Of a DNA stretch of 22,006 nt, positions 8,290-21,198 are shown piece after piece. The notes beneath the pieces were generated by a model. That model worked only from the letters and a program-made list of their open reading frames with translations. It searched no databases and was not told where the DNA came from. Position 1 is the stretch's first letter, and each line of letters opens with the position of its first letter. This stretch comes from Candidatus Pacearchaeota archaeon (lineage in GTDB: Archaea; Nanobdellota; Nanobdellia; Pacearchaeales; GW2011-AR1). The position numbers and the translations under genes are program-made. The stretch is taken from contig JAGVXK010000013.1 in assembly GCA_018303825.1 (NCBI GenBank), positions 1 to 22,006 on the forward strand, given 5' to 3'.

Positions 8290-9846
8290 ATGAAAAAAGG
8301 ATATAAGGTCGTTAATAGTTCGTTGCAAACGATATTCAAATCTTCTTTAATCGTTTTCATAGGAATTGCCTTGTCGAAAATCCTGGCATATGTATTTAGA
8401 ATCATAATAGCAAGGTATTATGGTCCTGAAGAATATGGATTATATCTTCTTGCCTTAATGGTAATAGGTTGGCTAGGCACTTTCGCCACCCTTGGTTTAA
8501 CAGAAGGAGTTCTAAGATATATTTCAATGTTCAGAGGGAAGAATGAACATGGAAAGATAAGATATTTATTATCTTATACTGTTATTATCACTTCGATAAT
8601 CGGATTTCTTGCCGCAATTTTCTTATTCTTCCTTTCTGATTTCATATCAATAAACATCTTTCACAACCCCGGACTTATTTTGTATCTTCAAGTTTTCAGC
8701 ATTCTTATTCCAATAGGAATCCTTGGAAATATTCTTTTAAGCACCATAAGGGCATTTGAAAAAGTCTCATGGTATTCTTTCATTTTTAATATCTTTCAAA
8801 ATGTAGTAAAGGTTCTTTTCTTATTAATATTGATATTTGCAGGATTTAAGAACGGGGCGGTAATGTTTTCCCAGTTCTTCACAAGTATAGCTGTTCTGTT
8901 GATAGGATATTTTGTCTTGAAATTTTCAGTTTCTCTTCCAAAGAAGACAAAAGAAAAGGATTTTGATAAAATATTTTTAAGAAATGAAATATTTTCTTAT
9001 TCCTGGCCAATAATGTTCTACGGGATAATGGCCAGCGTTCTATACTGGACAGATTCCTTCTTTATCGGATATTTCCTTGATGCTAGCTCTGTGGGAATTT
9101 ATAATGTGGCCCTTTCTCTAGCAACCTTGCTGGCATTCGCTCCTGAACTATTCATGCAACTATTTTTCCCATTAATAAATAAGGAACATGCAAGGAAGAG
9201 AACAACAGCCATAAGAGAGATAAGCAAGCAAGTAGGAAAATGGATATTTATCATCAACCTGCCATTATTTATCTTGGTAATGCTTTTCCCAGGAGCATTA
9301 ATCAAGATCTTGTTCGGCTCACAATATCTTATAGCAGCAACAAATGCATTAAGAATTCTCGCTGTTGGAACATTCTTCTCCTCAATGTTTGTAGTTTCAA
9401 ATAATCTTCTTAATATGCTTGGGAGGTCAAAGCTCTTGTTAATGAACACTTTAATAGTTGGAATCTTCAACATAATTTTTGATTTTATTCTTATCCAGAT
9501 TTACGGCATTAACGGTGCAGCAATAGCGACTACCTGTAGTTTTATACTTCTCGGAATTCTTCTAGCAGCAGAAACAAAACATTACATATCATTCATACCA
9601 TTTAGAAGAAAAATGCTTCGTATCTTGATTGTTGCAATTATCCCAACAATCCTATTAGTAATAGCGCACAATCTAATCAAAATAACTTTCTTCTCAATGA
9701 TTTATCTAAGCATTTTATTTGGAATTTTATATATAGTACTAATTTTTGCCACTAAATGTTTTGATGAAAATGATCTTACAATTATAAAGACAGTAAAGAA
9801 TAAGATGAAGCAATACACTTTCTTTGGTTATTCTCCTTTCGCATAA
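8290..9846 (+). CDS. Oligosaccharide flippase (Wzx/RfbX, MOP superfamily)
   Basis: IIIARYYGPEEYGLY, LYWTDSFFIGYFLDASSVGIYNVA, YGINGAAIAT; 518 aa with many TM segments. Confidence 0.9.
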   Translation: MKKGYKVVNSSLQTIFKSSLIVFIGIALSKILAYVFRIIIARYYGPEEYGLYLLALMVIGWLGTFATLGLTEGVLRYISMFRGKNEHGKIRYLLSYTVIITSIIGFLAAIFLFFLSDFISINIFHNPGLILYLQVFSILIPIGILGNILLSTIRAFEKVSWYSFIFNIFQNVVKVLFLLILIFAGFKNGAVMFSQFFTSIAVLLIGYFVLKFSVSLPKKTKEKDFDKIFLRNEIFSYSWPIMFYGIMASVLYWTDSFFIGYFLDASSVGIYNVALSLATLLAFAPELFMQLFFPLINKEHARKRTTAIREISKQVGKWIFIINLPLFILVMLFPGALIKILFGSQYLIAATNALRILAVGTFFSSMFVVSNNLLNMLGRSKLLLMNTLIVGIFNIIFDFILIQIYGINGAAIATTCSFILLGILLAAETKHYISFIPFRRKMLRILIVAIIPTILLVIAHNLIKITFFSMIYLSILFGILYIVLIFATKCFDENDLTIIKTVKNKMKQYTFFGYSPFA

Positions 9847-10375: not shown

Positions 10376-11305
10376 CTAATCTAATAGTCCTGCCAAGCTC
10401 TTTCCAATATCGCCTTCCCTAAATACTCCTTTTTCATACGCCCATTTAACGAAATGAAACTGTTCATCTAATGCACTAAGCTGCCCCATTCGTTTTGGAT
10501 TCCAAACTGCTTGATTAGCTTGTTCAATTTCCGCTTGTTCTATTGGGTGGTTATAATCAATAGGAACTGATATTATCCTGCCGCCCATTAAATTAATTAA
10601 GCAAACAGGCATTTGTATCATGTGGTCCCAGCGTTTGAAATCAGCTGCTGCTTCATCATAAATAAATTGTCTGGTATCTCCTTCTACCTGATGTTTTAAT
10701 TTAGCTTGTTTTTCCTGCAATCTCATCTCACCAAAAGCTCTCGAGATTTTGTCATCTCCAAAAACAAAAAAGAATGGCGTCACACCTCTAACCCAAAGCT
10801 TTGGTCCTGCAAACGTGTCTATCGGCTTGCCACGCATGTCCATGTAGCCCAAGTCTGTATGTCTTTGGTTTCCAAATTGTTCACTATTTCGCTGTGCTCC
10901 AGGATATTGCCTCATATTCTTTCTGAAAGGAACAGCGATATGCGCATGATTAGCTTCAATTCCCTCAACAAGACGAGGTATATGCCTTATCATATCTACT
11001 TTTTCAGGTTCTGTCCATATAATATAATCAATTCCATATCTATCTGCGTATTCTTGGGCATGTCCTAATGCTTCGCGCCTTGAGCCACTAAGTCCATGTT
11101 GTGTCTCCCCGTAACAATGCACGCCCATCGTGTTCATACTTGCAAGAAAAGCGCCATTATCTGTCCCGCCGTCTACTAAGAATACCTCATAGCCTTTTTC
11201 TACTGCTCCTGTAAGAAAATCCGTCGCTAATCTTTTTCTAAGAATCCCTTCAGGATTATTTCCATAAAAAGTCGTAGTCACAATCGCTACTTTTGGATTT
11301 GTCAT
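10376..11305 (-). CDS. Atypical GT-A-fold (GT2-like) protein
   Basis: KVAIVTTT..., VFLVDGGTD, GLSGSRREAL, then IIWTEPEK where GT2 enzymes have DxD. Fold assignment is by motif spacing only. Confidence 0.65.
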   Translation of the reverse strand: MTNPKVAIVTTTFYGNNPEGILRKRLATDFLTGAVEKGYEVFLVDGGTDNGAFLASMNTMGVHCYGETQHGLSGSRREALGHAQEYADRYGIDYIIWTEPEKVDMIRHIPRLVEGIEANHAHIAVPFRKNMRQYPGAQRNSEQFGNQRHTDLGYMDMRGKPIDTFAGPKLWVRGVTPFFFVFGDDKISRAFGEMRLQEKQAKLKHQVEGDTRQFIYDEAAADFKRWDHMIQMPVCLINLMGGRIISVPIDYNHPIEQAEIEQANQAVWNPKRMGQLSALDEQFHFVKWAYEKGVFREGDIGKSLAGLLD

Positions 11306-11958
11306 TTTTTATTTTCTACCTTCTTTAAAGCATGATGCGATTTAGAGTCCCCCACCATACAAGGAACTAACATATTATAATTCTTCCATGAATAAACATT
11401 TATCTCATCAGCGACTTCTTTGCAAGCAACTTTCAATACAGGATTATCTTCATAAAAAACGAACTTTTCGAAAGGAATTCCACCACCAAAACCTTGATCT
11501 CCCAATGTCAAAATATGACTTCTAAGACATTGAACTATTAGTTTTCCAGTTTCACCTTGCGGTTGGTAAGTAGTTAGGAATTTTAATAAATCTGCTGGAT
11601 GGTAGAATCCTCTTGGCACTGGTTCTTTGGTTGATTTTCTTATTAGTGGGATTGATAAATTTCCCTCTTCTTCATCAATCTCCAATGGAGAACAATTACC
11701 CCCCTGAACTATTCCACAAGATTTAGATATTAACCACCTTCTCTTTGGTATTTCAAAACAACAATATAAAGGAACGGCGCGCAATCCAGGGTATTTAGGA
11801 GAGATAATTCTTTTTATCGCTTCTGCTGCAAATTCATAGCCCTTGTTTTCTTGTCTGGTAAGACCCCTAACAGCCCGCTCTTGAATATCTCCACATTCTT
11901 TCTGTGGTTCCACCAACCAATAATTCTTTAGCTGTTCATTTGTTAAATATTTTCCCAT
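11302..11958 (-). CDS. Hypothetical protein (Cys-containing, no family recognised)
   Basis: 218 codons from ATG 11958, with TTTAAATA 22 nt upstream. Its stop overlaps the next gene's start (ATGA, 11302-11305). Confidence 0.7.
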   Translation of the reverse strand: MGKYLTNEQLKNYWLVEPQKECGDIQERAVRGLTRQENKGYEFAAEAIKRIISPKYPGLRAVPLYCCFEIPKRRWLISKSCGIVQGGNCSPLEIDEEEGNLSIPLIRKSTKEPVPRGFYHPADLLKFLTTYQPQGETGKLIVQCLRSHILTLGDQGFGGGIPFEKFVFYEDNPVLKVACKEVADEINVYSWKNYNMLVPCMVGDSKSHHALKKVENKK

Positions 11959-11979
11959 GTTATACCAGCTTAGCAAGTG

Positions 11980-12033: not shown

Positions 12034-14379
12034 CTATCTAGCCGTTTCTCTCAAATCAGCATCCACCATTAATTTAACAAGTTCCTTGAATTTTATTTTT
12101 GGCTCCCAGCCAAGCACTCTTTTGGCTTTTGAATAATCCCCGACTAATTTCTCAACTTCAGTTGGTCTGAAGTAAAGAGGGTCAATTTCTACTAAAACTC
12201 TCCCAGTATTAATATCAATTCCTTTTTCATTTATTCCTTCTCCTCCCCATCTTATTTTTATTCCAACATACTCAAAAGCAGATTCTACAAATTCTCTTAC
12301 AGAATGAGTCTCTCCAGTTGCAATTACATAATCATCCGGCTTATCTTGCTGCAGCATAAGCCACATTGACTCTACATAATCTGGCGCATACCCCCAATCC
12401 CTTCTTGCCCCCAAATTCCCAAGATATATTTTTTCATCCTTGCCAATTTTTATTGCTGCTACTCCTTGTGTAATTTTCTTTGTTACAAAATTCTCTCCTC
12501 TTCTCGGGCTTTCATGATTGAACAAAATTCCATTGCAAGCAAACATATTATATGCTTCTCTGTAATTCTTCACAATCCAATAAGCATAAAGCTTCGCAAT
12601 CCCATACGGACTTCTCGGGTAGAAAGGAGTTGTTTCTTTCTGGGGAGATTCCTGGACAAGCCCAAAAAGTTCGCTTGTCGAAGCCTGATAAACCTTTGTC
12701 TCCTTTAGTTCAAGAGAACGGACAATTTCAAGAAGTTTCAAGACTCCAAGAGCATCTGCATCTGCAGTATATTCTGGAGTTTCGAATGAAATCTGCACAT
12801 GGCTTTGCGCAGCAAGATTATATATTTCATCAGGCTTTACCATAGAAATTATTCTTTTTAAACTGCTGGAATCAGTCATATCACCGTAATGAAGGAAGAA
12901 GCTCTTGTGTCTTCTTGTCAGAGAGTGATAGATATCTTTTAATCTTCCTCTGTTGAAAGAACTGGCTCTTCTGACAAGTCCATGAACTTCATAGCCCTTG
13001 CTCAATAAAAATTCAGCGAGATACGAACCATCTTGTCCAGTGACACCAGTAATGAATGCCTTTTTTACTTTCTGACTGGGCTCGGGCTTCCATAATGAAG
13101 GACTCTGGCTGCTGCCTAGACTGCTATTAACAACACTCTTTTGATTATTTATATCGCTTAACGTAATTTTCTTGTCAGAGGTTATAGAATTTAAAGATAT
13201 ATGTCCTCTAGTTAATAACTTAGTCATCTCAGATATTTCTTCATTTGAAAGCTCAGGATTATTTGGAAAATAAAATCCAAGGGAATGAACTCTGCTTGCA
13301 TTTGGGCAGTCATAGAATCTTCCTCTTTCATTCATATAATCTATAAAGAATGGCTGTTCAACAATTGCCCCCCCAACTATCGGCCTTATTTCAATTTTAT
13401 TTTCAAACTTTGCTTTATATTCTTCCATAATAGAGTTGTTAATGAAAACTAATGGATAGGCAAAATTGGAAACAAAGTCTATATGCCCTGTTTTTATAGG
13501 AATGAAGTCTATGTTGTTCGAAACAGCGCTGTGAAATTTTTTAAAATTCTCATTTCTCTGGTTTATTATTTCATCAATGTATTTCAACTGTTCCAATCCA
13601 AGAAAACCAGTTATTTCTGTTGGTCTTAAGTTTTGTCCCAGCGTATAAAAAGTATATTGGTCATAAAAATTGCTTATTTTATTGTCCTCTTTTAACTTTT
13701 GTTTTTTATGGTTTTCAAGGTCTCTGCTCCATCCATGAGCTCTTGTCATCATTAATATATCATATAGATTTTCATTGTCTGTGCAGACCATTCCTCCCTC
13801 TATTGTTGACATATGGTGCCCTACAAAAAATGAAAAAGTGCTTGCAAGCCCGAAATTTCCCAATCTCACCCCGCCAAGCCTGCTTCCAAGAGATTCACAG
13901 TTGTCTTCCAATAAAATTATTCCTCTTTCATCGCATATATTCTTTATTTTATCAACATCTCCGCAGAATCCGAGAAGATTTGTCAAAAATAGGGTCTTTA
14001 TCTCAGTTCTTTCAAGAACTTTAAGTAAATTATCAGATGAAACATTCAGATGTTCAAGAGAGACATCTATTGGAATAGGTTCTAATCCAAGTTGAATTAA
14101 GGGCGTAACATTTGTTGCCCATGTGATTGCAGAAAATCCAACCTTATCGCCCTTATGCAGTTTTTTCATGTTCAACAATGCCTGAATCAATGCAAGGTTC
14201 GCAGAACTTCCACTATTGTACAAAACAGAATATTTTCTTCCCTGGTATTTTGAGAATTCTTTCTCAAATTCTTTGCACTTCTCTCCCATGCTTAACTTCT
14301 TGGCATTCTTAATAAAGTCGCAAAGTTTTGCTTTTGTCTCCTCTTCTTTGTAAAATGTGGATTTTATTAATGAAATCAT
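12034..14379 (-). CDS. colD-gmd: Fusion of an N-terminal ColD-like PLP-dependent GDP-4-keto-6-deoxymannose 3-dehydratase (DegT/DnrJ family, His-type) and a C-terminal GDP-mannose 4,6-dehydratase
   Basis: N-part: [45 protein letters not shown]-part: [64 protein letters not shown]. No stop codon and no in-frame Met in the linker. Start placed at ATG 14379 after AGGGAG. Confidence 0.88.
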
Positions 14380-14390
14380 CTTCTCCCTTT

Positions 14391-15308
14391 CTAATTTTTT
14401 TTTACAACCTCCTTGTAACATTCTATTGTTTTTGCAATTCCCTCTCTTAATCCAGTTTCTGGCTTCCAGCCAAGTGCTTTTTCCAGTCTTTTTGTATCTA
14501 GGACAATAGAATCTGTAGAAAGGTTGTAATACTTTGCGTCTTTGCTTACTTTTAACTTTGTATTAGTTAGTTCTGCTATGATTTGCGCCAACTCCTGCAC
14601 TTTGGTTCTAATTCCTGTTCCAAGATTCAAAACTCCCGAATAATTGCTCTGCAAAGCTCTGACAATTCCCTCGCAAACATCATCAACATAAATATAATCT
14701 CTTAATGCCTCTCCTTCATAAACTTCATTTTCTGAATTGATTAATGCATTAGTTATTAATCGCGGCACTATGGTAGGCATATCCTCTTTTTTCCATTGCT
14801 GTCCCGGACCATAGCAATTCCCGAGCCTGAATATTACCAACGGAAAACCGCTCTGTTGCAATTCAAGACCTTTTCTTTCTGCAGCCATTTTTGATTCTGC
14901 ATAAAAGTCCGGCTCATCCTGCAGTGCTTCATTTTCTTTTATTAAATCTTTGCTAGTTTTATAAACGACGCATGAAGACATGAACACTACTTTATCCACA
15001 TTTTTTTCATTTAATTTATTGAAAAAATTAATTGTAGAATCTACATTCAAAGACATGGTATCGTTTTTGTCTTTTGCTCTTGCGGGGCTGCTGAATCCTG
15101 CCAAATGGACTACATAATCAAAATCAATTTTATCAAGAAAAGAAAAATCAGTCTTTGTCAAATCCTTATTTATCATATAAACACCTGGAATTTCATTTCT
15201 CCCAACGTTGATAACATCTGCCTTCTCGCTCTGCAATCTCTTTATAAGATTCCTTCCGATGAATCCTGAACTTCCTGTTATTAGGACTCTTTTTCCCTCC
15301 AACGACAT
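14391..15308 (-). CDS. NAD(P)-dependent NDP-sugar epimerase/reductase (extended SDR)
   Basis: [27 protein letters not shown] (YxxxK), [23 protein letters not shown]. Confidence 0.88.
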
Positions 15309-15411: not shown

Positions 15412-15867
15412 TCAATTAAACACACCAGAATCAAAAATAACCCTTTTCACATATTCTGGAAGGCTTTCATCTATTTTATCTATCCATTTATACTCTGCAC
15501 TGGTTTTGTCCAGTTTTATTTTAAGATTTTTATCTTCCGCTTCAACAAGAAAACCTATGTTAATGGTATGAGTCCCCCCATCTATCTTGCCGAATGCGCT
15601 TTTTTCAAATATAGTTTCATATATTCCTATCATTTTATTTACTTTAACTTTCAACCCAACTTCCTCGAAAATCTTTCTTTTTGCAGCTTCCTCCAATTTT
15701 TCATTTTTGTAAACTCTTCCTCCAGGAACCCACCACTCTCCTTTTGCAGGCTCATTTTTTCTCTTGACAAGGAGAATTTTATTATCATGAAATAGGACAA
15801 CATCAACACAGCATATAGGCATTAACTCCAAGATTTTTCTATACTCCTCGTTTGGGATGTTTTTCAT
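15412..15867 (-). CDS. gmm: GDP-mannose mannosyl hydrolase-like NUDIX protein
   Basis: NEPAKGEWWVPGGRVYKNE...RKIFEEVGL is a Nudix box lacking the RE glutamate. THTINIGF matches the GDPMH His-base motif THYVVLGF. Start placed at ATG 15867. Confidence 0.75.
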   Translation of the reverse strand: MKNIPNEEYRKILELMPICCVDVVLFHDNKILLVKRKNEPAKGEWWVPGGRVYKNEKLEEAAKRKIFEEVGLKVKVNKMIGIYETIFEKSAFGKIDGGTHTINIGFLVEAEDKNLKIKLDKTSAEYKWIDKIDESLPEYVKRVIFDSGVFN

Positions 15868-15888
15868 AATGGACAAGAAGAGGCATCA

Positions 15889-15947: not shown

Positions 15948-17165
15948 ATGGATAATTTAAAGATTTCAAAAGATAACTTAAAAAAAATACAGTTCTATCC
16001 TTCCATAGAAAAGTTGTATAGCTTGGATAAAACAATAGTAGAATTTCCGCCAGAGGGATATACTTTCATTGGAACAGGTCCGAATATGGCTTATAAAATA
16101 ACAGACAGGGCAACAAGTTCCAAAACTTTAAGGAAATTAATTCGCCCCTTATATCATCTCTTTCTCAAAATATTCAAGACAACGAAAATCTTTGAGATGA
16201 CAAAGAAAACTCCTATTATGCAGGAAGCAAACCTCGTCTTTTCAGGTTCAGTGATATACGACATAAAAAAACCCTGGATATTATATATGTTTGACCACCC
16301 AACAAGCTTAGCGGGGAATAATTATCCTCTTTTCTTGAAATACCGAGACAAGATAGAGCAGGTCCTTCTTTCACCCTATTGCAAAAAAATAATTTACACA
16401 AATCAAACCCCCATAGAATTTATGAAAAAACAATTCTGCAAAGAAGTAGTAGATAAAATAGTCCTGATTGATTCTGGGATGAAGCCAATAGGCAAAGCAA
16501 AAACCTATCCAAAAGACTATAATAAAAAAAAGAAAAGAATTTTATTTATGGGTTCGATAAATAATCCCCTTGATTTTTACATTAAAGGCGGGTTAGAAGT
16601 AATAAAAACCATGCAATCAATGTCAAAAAGGAAAGACGTTGAATTCGTTGTCCGCTGTATGGTTTCTGATGAAATAAAAGAAGAAATTTCAAAAATTCCA
16701 AACGCAACTTTAATAGATAAAACCGTTCCGTTCGAAGAAATAATAAAACTATATGAAAGTGCAGATATATTATTCATGCCCGGGCATAATTATTCAGTTA
16801 CTGCATTTCTTGAGGCAATGTCTGTAGGCGTTCCGATAATTGCTCTTAATACCTATGCAGTTCAGGATTACATTGAAAATGGTTTCAATGGTTTTATTGT
16901 TCAAAGATCAGATAAAATAAAAGGATATACAAATCTAGGATACCCTTCTTACATAAGAACAGATACATTTACAGATGAAATAAAATCTCTTGACGACCCT
17001 GAATTGATAGCTAGGTTAAAGGAAAAGTTAGAGTATCTTCTTGCCAATCCAGGTTTAATAAAGAAAACAGGACAAAATGCAAGAAAAGAATTTCTGAGAA
17101 GGTACTCCCTGGAAAAAAGAAACAAAGAATTCAAGGAAGTATTCGACAAAGCTCTTGAACATTAA
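15948..17165 (+). CDS. GT-B fold glycosyltransferase, family 4-like
   Basis: ILFMG..., KGG..VI, YESADILFMP...FLEAMSVGVPIIA...IENGFNGFIV. The first Glu of the EX7E motif is replaced by Asn. Confidence 0.85.
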   Translation: MDNLKISKDNLKKIQFYPSIEKLYSLDKTIVEFPPEGYTFIGTGPNMAYKITDRATSSKTLRKLIRPLYHLFLKIFKTTKIFEMTKKTPIMQEANLVFSGSVIYDIKKPWILYMFDHPTSLAGNNYPLFLKYRDKIEQVLLSPYCKKIIYTNQTPIEFMKKQFCKEVVDKIVLIDSGMKPIGKAKTYPKDYNKKKKRILFMGSINNPLDFYIKGGLEVIKTMQSMSKRKDVEFVVRCMVSDEIKEEISKIPNATLIDKTVPFEEIIKLYESADILFMPGHNYSVTAFLEAMSVGVPIIALNTYAVQDYIENGFNGFIVQRSDKIKGYTNLGYPSYIRTDTFTDEIKSLDDPELIARLKEKLEYLLANPGLIKKTGQNARKEFLRRYSLEKRNKEFKEVFDKALEH

Positions 17166-17274
17166 ATATACGAAATGATAAAATTTAATTATGAAAAAAA
17201 GCACAAGATTAATAACTTTAATAAAACCAAACAGGTATAAGTAAATAATTTCAAATAATAAAAAACAAAATAAA

Positions 17275-18477
17275 ATGAAACTCGGACCAAATTTAAGAAA
17301 AAAATACACAAAATGCATTGAAATTGCCAGAAAATTCTCAGGATTAGTTGACAGGGCAATATGGCTGGCTCTTGACCCAAGTAAATTTAAAATGATAAGG
17401 AATAAAGAAATAGATAAAATCCTCGTAGTTCTTATAAATGAGCAAAAAGGAAATGTCGGCGGAGATTTTTGCCTTCTTGGAGTTTTAAATTATTTCAAAA
17501 AAGTTTATTCAAAAGTTGAAGTCGCAATTCTTGCAGATAAAAGTACAATAAAAACTTTCGGTTTCGTTCCGGGAATTGAAATGATTGAATATCAAGGAGT
17601 GGAAACTCTAAGAGACATAAGAGGAGAGCATTTCAAAGCAGCCCTGTTCATCAACCAGGGTCCGGTAAAAATAAAACAATTCCTTTTCATCCCATACAGA
17701 ATATCTTTATTTTACTACAGTTTCAGGGATTTCCTAAGCTTAAAGACAAAATTGTTCATTACAAGAAGGCCGTTTATCAAATGGGGAACCCACATGGTTG
17801 AAATGGAATTTAAGATGTTTGAAGCTTTGGGTTTTAAATTCAAAAAGAAAAAAACCATCTTTTATCATTCAAAAGGAGAAGAAGACAAAGTAAATTCTTT
17901 CCTAAAAAGCAATAATGTAAGCAAAGGCAACAAAACGGGGAAGTTTATTGTTATTCATCCTGGAGGAAAATTTGTCGTTGAAGCTCTTGAAAGAAATAAA
18001 ATCGCTCCTCATCTCTGGAGTTTTGAAGGATATGCGGAAGTAGCAGATTATTTTTCAAAGAAAGAATATAAGATTATCATCACAGGAACAGGAAGTGAGT
18101 CTATTTTAGCAGAAAAAATAATAAAAGAATCAAAAAATAAAAAAGGTATCATCAACACTTGTGGCAAGCTCACAATTAGGGAAGTTGGCGCATTGTTGGA
18201 AAAGGCAAGATTTCTCATTGCAACTGATACAAGCATTGTTCATGTAGCCTATCAAGTCGGTGTTCCAATTGTTGAACTAATGGGTCCCTCTTATCCTAAA
18301 ATAGTCGGCGCCTGGCCGACAGACAGCAAAAAGCACAAAATCCTGTTCGACAATGGTCCTTGTGCATACAGCATGAAAAAGACAGAATGCCCAGAAGACA
18401 TTCCCTGCATGCAGAATATCTCTGTCAATGATGTGGAAAAAGCAGGCGATGAATTGTTGAGACTAAAATTCAAATAA
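17275..18477 (+). CDS. Glycosyltransferase family 9 (WaaC/WaaF heptosyltransferase-like)
   Basis: GGDF (catalytic Asp position), FIVIHPGG, INTCGKLTIREVGALLEKARFLIATDTSIVHVAYQVGVPIVELMGP, and a C-terminal C..C...C MQNISV motif. Confidence 0.85.
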   Translation: MKLGPNLRKKYTKCIEIARKFSGLVDRAIWLALDPSKFKMIRNKEIDKILVVLINEQKGNVGGDFCLLGVLNYFKKVYSKVEVAILADKSTIKTFGFVPGIEMIEYQGVETLRDIRGEHFKAALFINQGPVKIKQFLFIPYRISLFYYSFRDFLSLKTKLFITRRPFIKWGTHMVEMEFKMFEALGFKFKKKKTIFYHSKGEEDKVNSFLKSNNVSKGNKTGKFIVIHPGGKFVVEALERNKIAPHLWSFEGYAEVADYFSKKEYKIIITGTGSESILAEKIIKESKNKKGIINTCGKLTIREVGALLEKARFLIATDTSIVHVAYQVGVPIVELMGPSYPKIVGAWPTDSKKHKILFDNGPCAYSMKKTECPEDIPCMQNISVNDVEKAGDELLRLKFK

Positions 18478-18490
18478 TCTCCATCTCATC

Positions 18491-19336
18491 TTATCTCACA
18501 TTCATCCCAAAATATATCTTCCTAAATAATCCATTTAGTGTGCCAAAATATCTATAAGTCATGAATAGAAGCATGGGCAGGAAAAGAGAAAAATTGCCAT
18601 TTTTGTGGCATTTCTTGATTGATAAAGCAACAATCATAATTGGAGATAATAAAATTCCAAATAGAGGAACAAGATAATTTATTCCCTTTATCTCGATAAC
18701 TTTGTTTTGTATCGAAGCACCAATCCATCTGCTTTGCTTGAAAACTTCTTTTAGTGTTTCAGGATTTTTATGATAGCATACAGCATTCTTCACTCTTCTT
18801 GACATTATTCCATATTTGAAATAGAATGTTGCATCATCTCCATATCCATATTTAGGGTCAAAGCATCCCATCTTGAAGAATTCTTTTTTTTGTATAGCCC
18901 TAAAAATATATCCCTTATCCTGATAGCTGTAATCCTTAAAATGAGTTCCCCAGCATTTGCTCCATATATTTTCCTGATTTGAAGCTATCTGCCTTCCTTC
19001 TTCTGTTCCAATTATCTTTTCCTTAATTATAGGTTCAATCAAGTTTTTTATGTAATTTTTCTCAAAAGTCATATCAGCATCAACAAAAATCAGTATTTTC
19101 CCTCTGGCTTTTTTAGCTCCAAGATTTCTAGAAAATCCGGGCCCCCTATGTTCTCCCTTAATCAGCTTTACTTTCTTAAATCCCCAAATGATTTCCTTCG
19201 TTTTATCAATCGAACCATCATCAATAACTATAACCTCTTTATTTTTGTAGCTCTGTTTCTCCAGAGAGGAAAGACATTTACCAATATCTTCCTCTTCATT
19301 ATAAGCCGGGATAATTACACTTACTAATACTGCCAT
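18491..19336 (-). CDS. Glycosyltransferase family 2
   Basis: VSVIIPAYNEE, VIVIDDGS, RNLGAKKARG, IFVDAD (DxD). Confidence 0.92.
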   Translation of the reverse strand: MAVLVSVIIPAYNEEEDIGKCLSSLEKQSYKNKEVIVIDDGSIDKTKEIIWGFKKVKLIKGEHRGPGFSRNLGAKKARGKILIFVDADMTFEKNYIKNLIEPIIKEKIIGTEEGRQIASNQENIWSKCWGTHFKDYSYQDKGYIFRAIQKKEFFKMGCFDPKYGYGDDATFYFKYGIMSRRVKNAVCYHKNPETLKEVFKQSRWIGASIQNKVIEIKGINYLVPLFGILLSPIMIVALSIKKCHKNGNFSLFLPMLLFMTYRYFGTLNGLFRKIYFGMNVR

Positions 19337-19357
19337 TTTCTTTGTACAGACTAAAAG

Positions 19358-19365
19358 TATATAAA
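19358..19365. promoter_or_regulatory. Single TATA box centred between two divergent genes
   Basis: TATATAAA on plus and TTTATATA on minus; 22 nt from both ATG 19336 (-) and ATG 19387 (+). Confidence 0.6.
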
Positions 19366-19386
19366 TTGTTCTTTCTCGCTTTTAGG

Positions 19387-20007
19387 ATGAAAAAATTAAT
19401 CTTCGAATTCCTGCAAAGAATATTAAAAAAAGGCAATTTGCAGTTAAGAAAGATAAAACTGCGCTCTATGAATCAATTTCTAAAAGAAAATTATGGAAAA
19501 AAAGAACTGATAGGGATTGAAATTGGCATTCTTGCAGGAGAAAATTCCTTGGAAATGTTTGAAAATCTGAACATAAAGAAACTTTATCTCATAGACCCTT
19601 ATTCTTCTTACTCTGATTATAAAGAAACTGAAATGAATGCAAGAGGACAGAAATCATTGAACAAATATGAGCAGTCCGCAAGAAATAGATTGAAGAAATA
19701 TAACGACAAAATTGTCTGGGTCAAAAAGTTCTCCTCTGATGCCTGGAAGGACATAAAAGAAGAAGTTGATTTTGTATACATTGATGGGAATCATCAATAC
19801 GAATATGTAAAGAAAGACATTGAAACTTATTATCCTCTTGTGAAAAAAGGAGGAGTTTTTGGAGGCCATGATTACAATACCTATCTTCCAATGGAAAAAT
19901 CAATGCAGGACTATGGTGTTGTAGAAGCAGTCACGGAATTTCTAAGAAGATTAAAGCAAAAAAGAAAACTCTGGTTCTACGAGTCTGATTGGTGGATAGT
20001 TAAATAA
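19387..20007 (+). CDS. Class I SAM-dependent methyltransferase (Methyltransf_24-like)
   Basis: IEIG...GENS, LYLIDPY, VDFVYIDGNHQYEYVKKDI...KKGGVFGGHDY. Start placed at ATG 19387. Confidence 0.85.
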   Translation: MKKLIFEFLQRILKKGNLQLRKIKLRSMNQFLKENYGKKELIGIEIGILAGENSLEMFENLNIKKLYLIDPYSSYSDYKETEMNARGQKSLNKYEQSARNRLKKYNDKIVWVKKFSSDAWKDIKEEVDFVYIDGNHQYEYVKKDIETYYPLVKKGGVFGGHDYNTYLPMEKSMQDYGVVEAVTEFLRRLKQKRKLWFYESDWWIVK

Positions 20008-20100
20008 TTTCGGGATAATACAGATAAGTGATAGAGGTTGGGAATATTAAGTTGAAAGTGGAATGTTGACATACAAGTAAAAGTAGTTATAATAGATAAT

Positions 20101-21198
20101 TTGTATGAAAATGTATTTAAATCAACATTTCCTCAGACAATAGGTGGGGGAACAACCCACATTGTCAATCTTGGCAAAGCCCTTGTAAATTTAGGGAATG
20201 AAGTTCATATTATCAGTTCAAGGGCAGAAAAAGGCAAGGAAAATCAAAACGCGAGGAAATTTCCAAAAGGACTTTACATTCATCAGATAGGAATGATACA
20301 TAAGAAGTTTGAAGGTTCAGGAAAATTCTATTATTTATACAGAATTTTCTTTGAATTGGCTTTCCTTTTTGGAGCTTGGAAGAAAATAAAAGAAATAAAG
20401 CCTGATGTGATAGATACCCAAGCTCCGATAACAACTTCTCTTCCAGCATCACTTTCGGGAGTTCCATTTGTAATGACATGCCATGGAATTCATTCGTATG
20501 GTTTTGGAAAATTTTACAAAATGAAAGGAAAATTTAATTCAAAAAGAGCCAGGAAAATAATCTCTCAAGGCGATGAAACCGTTGATTTTTATGTCAAATT
20601 AGCTGGAGATAAAAAGAAGAAAGTAATAATTCCGAATTTAGTAGATACAGAATTCTGGGAATTCTCAAATGATAAAGATAACAAAAGAATTGCAACTGCA
20701 GCGAGATTTTCTAAGCAGAAAGCTCTCGATAAACTTGTTACAGCAATGAAATCTCTGTCGGATTATGAACTTCATCTAATAGGTGGAGGAGACATGGAAG
20801 AAGTAATAAAAAAAATTGCAGGAAAAAATGTTAAATTATTTGGTTTTCAACCACCTGAATTCTGTAAAAAAGAATATAAAAAAGCAAGATTCACCGTTCT
20901 TCCAAGCGAGTTTGAAGGACTCCCCTATTCAATATTAGAATCAATGTCTTCTGGAGTAATTCCAATTGTTACAAAAGTCGGAGACTTAAGATCACTCATT
21001 GTTGATGGAAAGAATGGTTTCTTCCTTAAAGATAATAATCCAAAAACAATTATAGAAACAATAAAAAAAGCTAGCAAAGCAAATCTAAAAAAGATAGGCA
21101 TTGAAGCAAGAAAAACAGTTGTTAATGGCTGGGGATTAGATAAGGTTGGAAGGATTTTCCTTAACATATACAAGCAAGCCTTAGAAGAAAAAGGTTAG
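20101..21198 (+). CDS. Glycosyltransferase family 4 (start codon uncertain)
   Basis: FP..IGGG..HIVNL, PFVMTCHG, IIPNLVD, ARFSKQKALD, VLPSEFEGLPYSILESMSSG (EX7E), IVDGKNGF. Confidence 0.85.
   Translation: MYENVFKSTFPQTIGGGTTHIVNLGKALVNLGNEVHIISSRAEKGKENQNARKFPKGLYIHQIGMIHKKFEGSGKFYYLYRIFFELAFLFGAWKKIKEIKPDVIDTQAPITTSLPASLSGVPFVMTCHGIHSYGFGKFYKMKGKFNSKRARKIISQGDETVDFYVKLAGDKKKKVIIPNLVDTEFWEFSNDKDNKRIATAARFSKQKALDKLVTAMKSLSDYELHLIGGGDMEEVIKKIAGKNVKLFGFQPPEFCKKEYKKARFTVLPSEFEGLPYSILESMSSGVIPIVTKVGDLRSLIVDGKNGFFLKDNNPKTIIETIKKASKANLKKIGIEARKTVVNGWGLDKVGRIFLNIYKQALEEKG

Follow-up and report, generated by a model that had tools for sequence, protein, structure and literature searches.

A predicted bifunctional protein joining ColD-type 3-dehydratase and GDP-mannose 4,6-dehydratase domains in a Pacearchaeota archaeon

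The sugar 3-dehydratase ColD is set apart by three features, an aminotransferase fold, a His at the site of the Schiff-base Lys and the lack of a four-Cys iron-sulfur (Fe-S) motif, and its mechanism has been reviewed (PMC8987622). Colitose pathways are absent from TACK archaea, and the same source implies that they have been computationally predicted in some archaea outside TACK (PMC7725333). Genes for consecutive steps of deoxysugar synthesis can be fused, as in the bi- and trifunctional UDP-rhamnose synthases of plants and viruses and in an RmlC/D fusion (PMC8987622). Here we analyse a 781-residue protein (P0001) of a Candidatus Pacearchaeota archaeon, in which a single reading frame joins an N-terminal domain (N-domain) of the DegT family to a GDP-mannose 4,6-dehydratase (Gmd). 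Its gene, colD-gmd, lies in a 22,006-nucleotide stretch of DNA (contig JAGVXK010000013.1, assembly GCA_018303825.1), which we call the window. A preliminary description of the window had read the protein as a bifunctional enzyme that converts GDP-mannose to GDP-4-keto-3,6-dideoxymannose, and this proposal is well supported in silico by similarity ranking, the catalytic His, the missing Fe-S loop, a tree, the Gmd motifs and gene context. We consider it probable that the protein combines the Gmd and ColD-type activities and that its product would feed a GDP-3,6-dideoxyhexose surface glycan.

The N-domain matches the Pfam family PF01041 (DegT_DnrJ_EryC1) over residues 13-386 with 195.7 bits. In a ranking against all PDB sequences, four ColD entries come first at ~203-207 bits (2gms, 206.8), followed by E1 at 141.1 bits, a putative NDP-sugar 3-dehydratase at 121 and Lys-type sugar aminotransferases at 83 or less. 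For the N-domain, Foldseek also places ColD ahead (E about 2e-29, template modelling (TM) score 0.85-0.88), with E1 behind at a TM score of 0.77. The first His of the sequence 'GHH' aligns with ColD His188, the residue that is His in 2gms and is altered in 3b8x (H188N), 2r0t (H188K) and 3gr9 (Lys), and it is invariant across both family alignments. The ColD sequence RAHGWTR is found as RAHGWSR, giving the common motif RAHGW(S/T)R. Where E1 has its Cys-rich loop (rdCyCapgCdntCkk, including CyCapgCdntC), the archaeal domain has a 6-residue, Cys-free gap; its only Cys residues are at positions 20, 35, 139, 149, 161, 199 and 358, with none between residues 200 and 357. The preliminary description had noticed both the exchange of His for the Schiff-base Lys and the absence of the Cys cluster of the Fe-S-dependent E1 and RfbH, and the alignments bear out both observations. 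Its coordinates, including those of the His188 and His189 codons (13813-13818), are all correct.

A maximum-likelihood tree of 58 DegT domains, computed in a quick version, agrees with this picture. The ColD of E. coli O55 falls within the clade of the archaeal N-domain with a Shimodaira-Hasegawa-like approximate likelihood-ratio test (SH-aLRT) value of 100, whereas an E. coli Lys-type DegT protein and the only two fusions that bear a Lys lie on the opposite side. The ColD assignment made in the preliminary description thus stands against a grouping with Lys-type enzymes. The archaeal N-domain has all three of the features that define ColD, the bit scores put characterised ColD nearer to it than either E1 or Lys-type sugar aminotransferases, and the tree groups it with ColD and apart from the Lys-type reference; by sequence, then, we assign it to the ColD type. 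A Lys-type aminotransferase resembling perosamine synthase was considered and rejected on account of the His at the site and the position in the tree, and an E1/RfbH type was rejected for want of the Cys loop.

The C-terminal domain is a complete Gmd, as the preliminary description had it. It matches Pfam GDP_Man_Dehyd over residues 442-771 with 506 bits, and scores 580.8 bits with the NCBIfam gmd model TIGR01472, well above the equivalog cut-off of 415, along model positions 1-341 of 342. The PDB entry 7kf3 is matched at 492 bits, identity to solved Gmd enzymes is about 60-63%, and Foldseek retrieves such enzymes at a TM score of 0.97. The NADP-binding and catalytic motifs are intact, with GVTGQDG (GxxGxxG) at residue 445, STSE (T-S-E) at 567 and YGIAK (YxxxK) at 592, all kept relative to 7kf3. 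An AlphaFold2 model of the whole protein, built from an input alignment of 51 sequences, has a mean predicted local distance difference test (pLDDT) score of 91.5, with both domains above 90, and a predicted TM score of 0.59. No solved chain among the Foldseek matches covers both halves. The parent enzymes ColD and Gmd each form dimers or tetramers.

The open frame on the minus strand runs without interruption through 12034..14421, or 795 amino acids, so the preliminary claim of one unbroken open reading frame (ORF) from the DegT-family domain into the Gmd is upheld. If translation began at another ATG farther upstream, at 14421, colD-gmd would overlap the gene before it, which encodes a short-chain dehydrogenase/reductase (SDR). 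ATG 14379 is the likely true start, because it lies 11 nucleotides past the TAG stop codon of the SDR gene (14393-14391), is preceded by GGGAGA and yields an N-terminus, MISLIKSTF, that agrees in the alignment with homolog starts such as MIKLMKSTF. The identical 781-residue protein is recorded on seven contigs, the longest of 65 kb, and the 795-residue version on two more, in records that span JGI, ENA, Logan and NCBI. Homologs with 52-69% identity (P0002, P0003, P0005, P0004 and P0015) keep the reading frame from ColD into Gmd, and the fragment P0011 has a linker identical to that of the 781-residue protein. Because the same protein occurs on several contigs, homologs conserve the frame and P0011 shares the linker, we regard the fusion as real; an assembly artefact was rejected in view of the conserved fused orthologs. 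P0011 itself (470 residues) is divergent over its first ~170 residues and identical over the remainder, including the whole 48-residue linker and the first ~20 residues of Gmd, which suggests either a chimeric contig or strain-level recombination inside the gene.

Between the two domains lies a linker that, as the preliminary description stated, is about 48 residues long, rich in Ser (12 residues) and free of stop codons and in-frame Met. At the position of the ancestral gmd start the codon is now GTA (Val438), not ATG, GTG or TTG, which makes initiation of Gmd at that position impossible; an internal gmd start was rejected for this reason. The homologs P0002 and P0003 keep a Met just ahead of the sequence KKALITG, presumably the old gmd start. 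A search for tandem repeats in the linker DNA found none. Residues 393-434 have pLDDT values below 50, and the linker is predicted to be a disordered, flexible tether between two confidently modelled domains. In proteins that fuse DegT and Gmd domains the linkers are unconserved and span 4-48 residues, those of homologs with the same frame 4-21 residues; within its domain-order class, no linker is longer or less conserved than the one studied here. The preliminary description had proposed that the fusion might channel a labile 4-keto intermediate. True substrate channelling is possible, although the length, predicted disorder and lack of conservation of the linker give it no support, and given the range of 4-48 residues simple tethering fits as well. 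We found no evidence for the premise that the intermediate is labile.

In the mechanism that we propose, the Gmd domain, an NADP-dependent SDR, would oxidise and dehydrate GDP-D-mannose to GDP-4-keto-6-deoxy-D-mannose. The ColD-type domain would form a Schiff base between pyridoxamine 5'-phosphate (PMP) and this sugar, with His188 as general base and acid, and expel the 3-hydroxyl group; hydrolysis would then release GDP-4-keto-3,6-dideoxy-D-mannose and ammonia. PMP would be regenerated from pyridoxal 5'-phosphate (PLP) with glutamate, with no need of an Fe-S cluster or a reductase partner. The SDR encoded upstream may reduce C4 and possibly epimerise C5 to give a GDP-3,6-dideoxyhexose, which neighbouring glycosyltransferases and a flippase would make part of a glycan on the surface or the S-layer. 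The ColD-type domain is tied to the Gmd product because it is fused to Gmd and because, in about 30 of the 80 related species genomes compared, gmd is found directly upstream of the ColD-like gene. Most likely the fusion ensures, in a streamlined genome, that consecutive enzymes are made in a 1:1 ratio and stay close together, and any kinetic benefit would come on top of this.

Proteins of this architecture are recurrent. Both a DegT and a Gmd domain are carried by 40 of the 120 best matches in a collection of 5.8 billion proteins, in either order (ColD-Gmd and Gmd-ColD), and 38 of these 40 have His at the catalytic site. The fusions form subfamilies with the signatures 'FVGHH' (that of the 781-residue protein), 'FYFGHHMTT', 'FYYGHHMTT' and the distant 'AHILVTGVGG'. 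The tree forces at least five changes of state for each domain order (starred branches), which points to repeated fusion or fission. A DegT lineage with the sequence 'STYxAHILVTGVGG' (P0038, P0044, P0045, P0048, P0050-P0052 and P0056; ~25% identity, His at the Lys site) is likewise fused to Gmd, with some triple fusions of ~1040 residues, and it stands on the Lys-type side of the tree, not with ColD. Another protein, P0041 (1213 residues), combines, in this order, Gmd, a ~485-residue radical-SAM/B12-binding region and a Lys-type DegT aminotransferase, and so represents a separate, more complex kind of fusion for modifying GDP-sugars.

At the level of loci, fusion is the exception. When 185,579 species genomes were searched with an alignment of ColD domains only, at least 583 loci of the ColD-like subfamily were returned, in DPANN archaea, Patescibacteria, gammaproteobacterial metagenome-assembled genomes, a Chitinophaga and others. 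Among the best 80 of these, two show fusion to Gmd, a separate Gmd gene lies within 4 kb of another 32, and 46 have none within that distance; in 30 of the 32, gmd is upstream of the ColD-like gene, mostly immediately. Of 40 genomes from the family or order of this archaeon, none gave a full-length fused match. One genome of the same family (G004; L002:434-2655) has adjacent, unfused genes, gmd (346 amino acids) and then a ColD-like gene (384 amino acids), the reverse of the fused order, so the fusion in the window must also have needed a change of gene order or must stem from a different ancestor. We read the fusion in this genome as a lineage-specific event, in a family in which fusion recurs and is the minority state.

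The architecture can be extended by one more domain. A 1060-residue SDR-ColD-Gmd protein (P0004) of Candidatus Pacearchaeota archaeon CG_4_10_14_0_2_um_filter_35_33 (PFOR01000012.1, L018:3089-6271) is seen on more than 30 contigs (PIO07510.1 and others; Crystal Geyser), and its domains follow the order found in the window, where a separate SDR gene precedes colD-gmd. This triple fusion would hold the whole three-step pathway to a GDP-3,6-dideoxyhexose in one chain. Public sources label the fused proteins, the triple fusion included, simply as 'GDP-mannose 4,6-dehydratase', and a literature search, PMC8987622 and PMC7725333 included, found no published description of a ColD-Gmd fusion. The novelty suggested by the preliminary description is nevertheless overstated, as the architecture recurs in 38 of the 120 top matches, Pacearchaeota and Nanoarchaeota among them, and has several independent origins. 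The fusion is best described as a recurrent variant of known enzymes, so far uncharacterised, and its novelty is modest rather than striking.

The genome of this DPANN archaeon comprises 0.81 Mb in 23 contigs, is 85.7% complete and contains an archaeal small-subunit rRNA; the nearest named relatives of the fused protein are from Pacearchaeota and Woesearchaeota. The colD-gmd gene belongs to a co-directional run on the minus strand that begins with a Nudix hydrolase and continues with the SDR, colD-gmd and two orphan ORFs (Table 1). The Nudix protein scores 76.1 bits with the GDP-mannose mannosyl hydrolase (Gmm) model NF011963, under its cut-off of 146 and hence outside the family as the model defines it, and Gmm is still its best match in both PDB (1rya, E 2.4e-16) and NCBIfam. 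The SDR was considered as a ColC and rejected: it reaches 85 bits with the Fcl model NF047922, against a cut-off of 500, which places it outside the GDP-L-fucose synthase family, it is 23% identical to ColC of E. coli O55, and its best PDB matches are generic epimerases and reductases. Over its full length it is 47% identical to the N-terminal domain of the triple fusion P0004, and this orthology ties it to the pathway as the probable 4-ketoreductase for the ColD product, which may or may not be an epimerase as well. The two orphan ORFs match no Pfam or NCBIfam family. An ESM Atlas search with both returned 'hypothetical protein' clusters; the nearest ones of the longer ORF come mostly from candidate-phyla bacteria, and one of them, with glycosyltransferase family 2 (GT2) on 16% of its members, offers a weak lead.

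Table 1. Features of the colD-gmd locus and its surroundings (coordinates in the window)
Feature	Position	Strand	Basis or remark
S-layer-like protein, 894 amino acids	918..3602	-	PF05124 S_layer_C, 56.3 bits
Wzx/MATE-type polysaccharide flippase	8290..9846	+	Domain search
Two orphan ORFs, 224 and 309 amino acids, 4-nucleotide overlap	10376..11976	-	Directly downstream of colD-gmd
Fused colD-gmd gene	12034..14379	-	781 codons plus stop codon at 12034-12036
GDP-mannose 4,6-dehydratase domain, residues 439-781	12037..13065	-	TIGR01472, 7kf3, Foldseek
Ser-rich interdomain linker, 48 amino acids, residues 391-438	13066..13209	-	12 Ser; not conserved in homologs
Putative ColD-type PMP/PLP-dependent 3-dehydratase domain, DegT fold, residues 1-390	13210..14379	-	Pfam, PDB, Foldseek
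His188 codon	13816..13818	-	At the position of the Schiff-base Lys of aminotransferases
Spacer between SDR stop and colD-gmd start, 11 nucleotides	14380..14390	-	GGGAGA ribosome-binding-like motif at 14382-14387
Extended SDR, 305 amino acids	14391..15308	-	Pfam Epimerase, 135.8 bits
Nudix hydrolase, Gmm-like	15412..15876	-	NF011963, PDB 1rya
GT4 glycosyltransferase	15948-17165	+	Domain search
GT9 glycosyltransferase	17275-18477	+	PF01075, 70 bits
GT2 glycosyltransferase	18491-19336	-	Domain search
Methyltransferase	19342-20007	+	Domain search
GT4 glycosyltransferase	20101-21198	+	Domain search

The other neighbours fit a cluster for a GDP-mannose-derived glycan. The glycosyltransferase block at 15948..21198 holds candidate users of the nucleotide sugar, and the S-layer-like protein is a possible glycan acceptor. 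The GT9 protein belongs to the lipopolysaccharide heptosyltransferase family, here in an archaeal surface-glycan cluster, and has weak matches to heptosyltransferases I-III. An Rfam scan of the window gave no matches.

Several points weigh against a bifunctional Gmd-ColD enzyme feeding such a glycan. The N-domain of the 'FVGHH' subfamily is only 36% identical to a characterised ColD, that of E. coli O55:H7 (sequence from the genome record), and has Gly at position 187, where ColD has Ser. The DegT-domain tree is a quick version with SH-aLRT support only, and was built without reference sequences for E1, SpnQ or perosamine synthase. The SDR is neither ColC- nor Fcl-like, so the end product could be L-colitose or a D-series 3,6-dideoxyhexose. 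A ManC-type member of the NTP_transferase family (PF00483) was not found in this 85.7%-complete genome; 22 of 40 relatives (G001-G040) have a PF00483 match, and the relative G023, 92% complete in 3 contigs, matches Gmd and not PF00483. Supply by a host, a non-canonical enzyme and gaps in the assembly are all possibilities for the source of GDP-mannose. The low identity to ColD, Gly187 and the SDR unlike ColC, together with the aminotransferase activity of SpnQ under some conditions (PMC8987622), would also suit an N-domain that acts on the Gmd product by another His-dependent PLP/PMP chemistry, making a 4-amino sugar by net transamination or carrying out a 3-dehydration on the way to some other product, for instance a sugar that is branched or modified further; the protein would then be bifunctional without ending at the intermediate of the colitose pathway. 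We think this unlikely, as the domain has the catalytic His and RAHGW(S/T)R, finds its best sequence and fold match in ColD and shares a clade with it, while the two Lys-bearing fusions group with the Lys-type reference on the other side of the tree, and the window encodes no thiamine-dependent or C-branching enzyme.

The remaining alternatives concern the reality of the protein and the state of its halves. Since the genome is metagenome-assembled, the linker is of unusual length and the genes are separate in G004, the closest of the family members examined, one might suspect an artefact of assembly, frameshift or gene calling, or two proteins made through an internal start or proteolysis of the linker. 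The occurrence of the identical protein on seven (plus two) contigs from several sources, the fused frame kept by homologs with linkers of 4-21 residues, the lack of a start codon at the old gmd start and the lack of a repeat make this very unlikely overall, although cleavage of the linker by a protease may still occur. It is extremely unlikely that the N-domain is the 3-dehydratase half of an E1/SpnQ-type system that needs an Fe-S cluster and a separate reductase. RfbH is indeed the best named NCBIfam match of the N-domain, probably because the list has no ColD-specific model, but its 188.9 bits are far under the cut-off of 423; E1 reaches 141 bits against 207 for ColD, the four-Cys loop of E1 is replaced by a gap, and, with Gmd as the fusion partner, the substrate should be a GDP-sugar and not one linked to CDP or dTDP. 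Least probable of all is that one half has decayed and is retained without catalysis for structure or regulation, given that each half keeps all its catalytic and cofactor motifs, both are modelled at pLDDT above 90 and no Gmd besides the fused one was found in the genome. All four explanations are less likely than a bifunctional Gmd-ColD enzyme.

If this assignment is true, DPANN archaea and candidate-phyla bacteria would have a large number of two- or three-step GDP-3,6-dideoxyhexose synthases among the proteins that are now labelled just 'GDP-mannose 4,6-dehydratase' or 'DegT aminotransferase'. Their annotation would be corrected, and unusual surface sugars, possibly antigenic or involved in host contact, would be predicted in episymbionts. 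The two domain orders, the linkers of 4-48 residues and the triple fusion would form a natural series for testing tethering and channelling, and the proteins could serve as compact one-gene biocatalysts for rare dideoxy sugars. To our knowledge, 3,6-dideoxy sugars have never been shown chemically in Archaea. A bolder and rather doubtful extension is that the double and triple fusions act as a channelling 'GDP-3,6-dideoxyhexose synthase' that supplies a 3,6-dideoxy sugar to the DPANN S-layer, with a stereochemistry other than that of colitose set by the non-ColC reductase and with GDP-mannose perhaps scavenged from the host, a source suggested by the failure to find a ManC-type gene. Current understanding is not overturned, as both chemistries and the fusion of deoxysugar enzymes are well known; ColD-Gmd fusions are useful for annotation and as a model for enzymology, and are not very surprising.

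Among characterised enzymes, the closest to the N-domain is ColD/WbdK (E. coli O55:H7, PDB 2gms, 3b8x, 2r0t and 3gr9; also Yersinia pseudotuberculosis), with which it shares the fold, His188, the absence of an Fe-S loop, RAHGW(S/T)R and a place downstream of Gmd. It differs in being only 36% identical, in having Gly187 instead of Ser, in being fused to Gmd, in its archaeal host and in being paired with an SDR that is not a ColC. The C-terminal domain is a full member of the Gmd family (TIGR01472; PDB 7kf3, 1t2a and 1db3), but it lacks a separate start codon and is linked by the tether to the enzyme that follows in the pathway. The colitose genes of E. coli O55/O111 (gmd, colD and colC, with gmm in related GDP-sugar clusters) follow the same enzyme logic; there the genes are separate, whereas the archaeal run holds Gmm-like, SDR, ColD and Gmd genes co-directionally, the last two fused. 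ColC of E. coli belongs to the Fcl family and the archaeal SDR is only 23% identical to it; the end product may accordingly be a D-series 3,6-dideoxyhexose instead of L-colitose. With precedents in deoxysugar enzyme fusions the architecture is unsurprising, although the UDP-rhamnose synthases and fused RmlC/D are built from SDR or cupin domains, and ColD-Gmd joins an SDR dehydratase to a dehydratase of PLP fold. Also close are other archaeal proteins, unpublished entries of the databases: the 1060-residue Pacearchaeota SDR-ColD-Gmd (PIO07510.1) has the same domains, the same His and the same gene order with one fusion more, and Gmd-ColD proteins of Pacearchaeota and Nanoarchaeota (MCK4553274.1 and MEK6833307.1) have the same domains and His in a different domain order.

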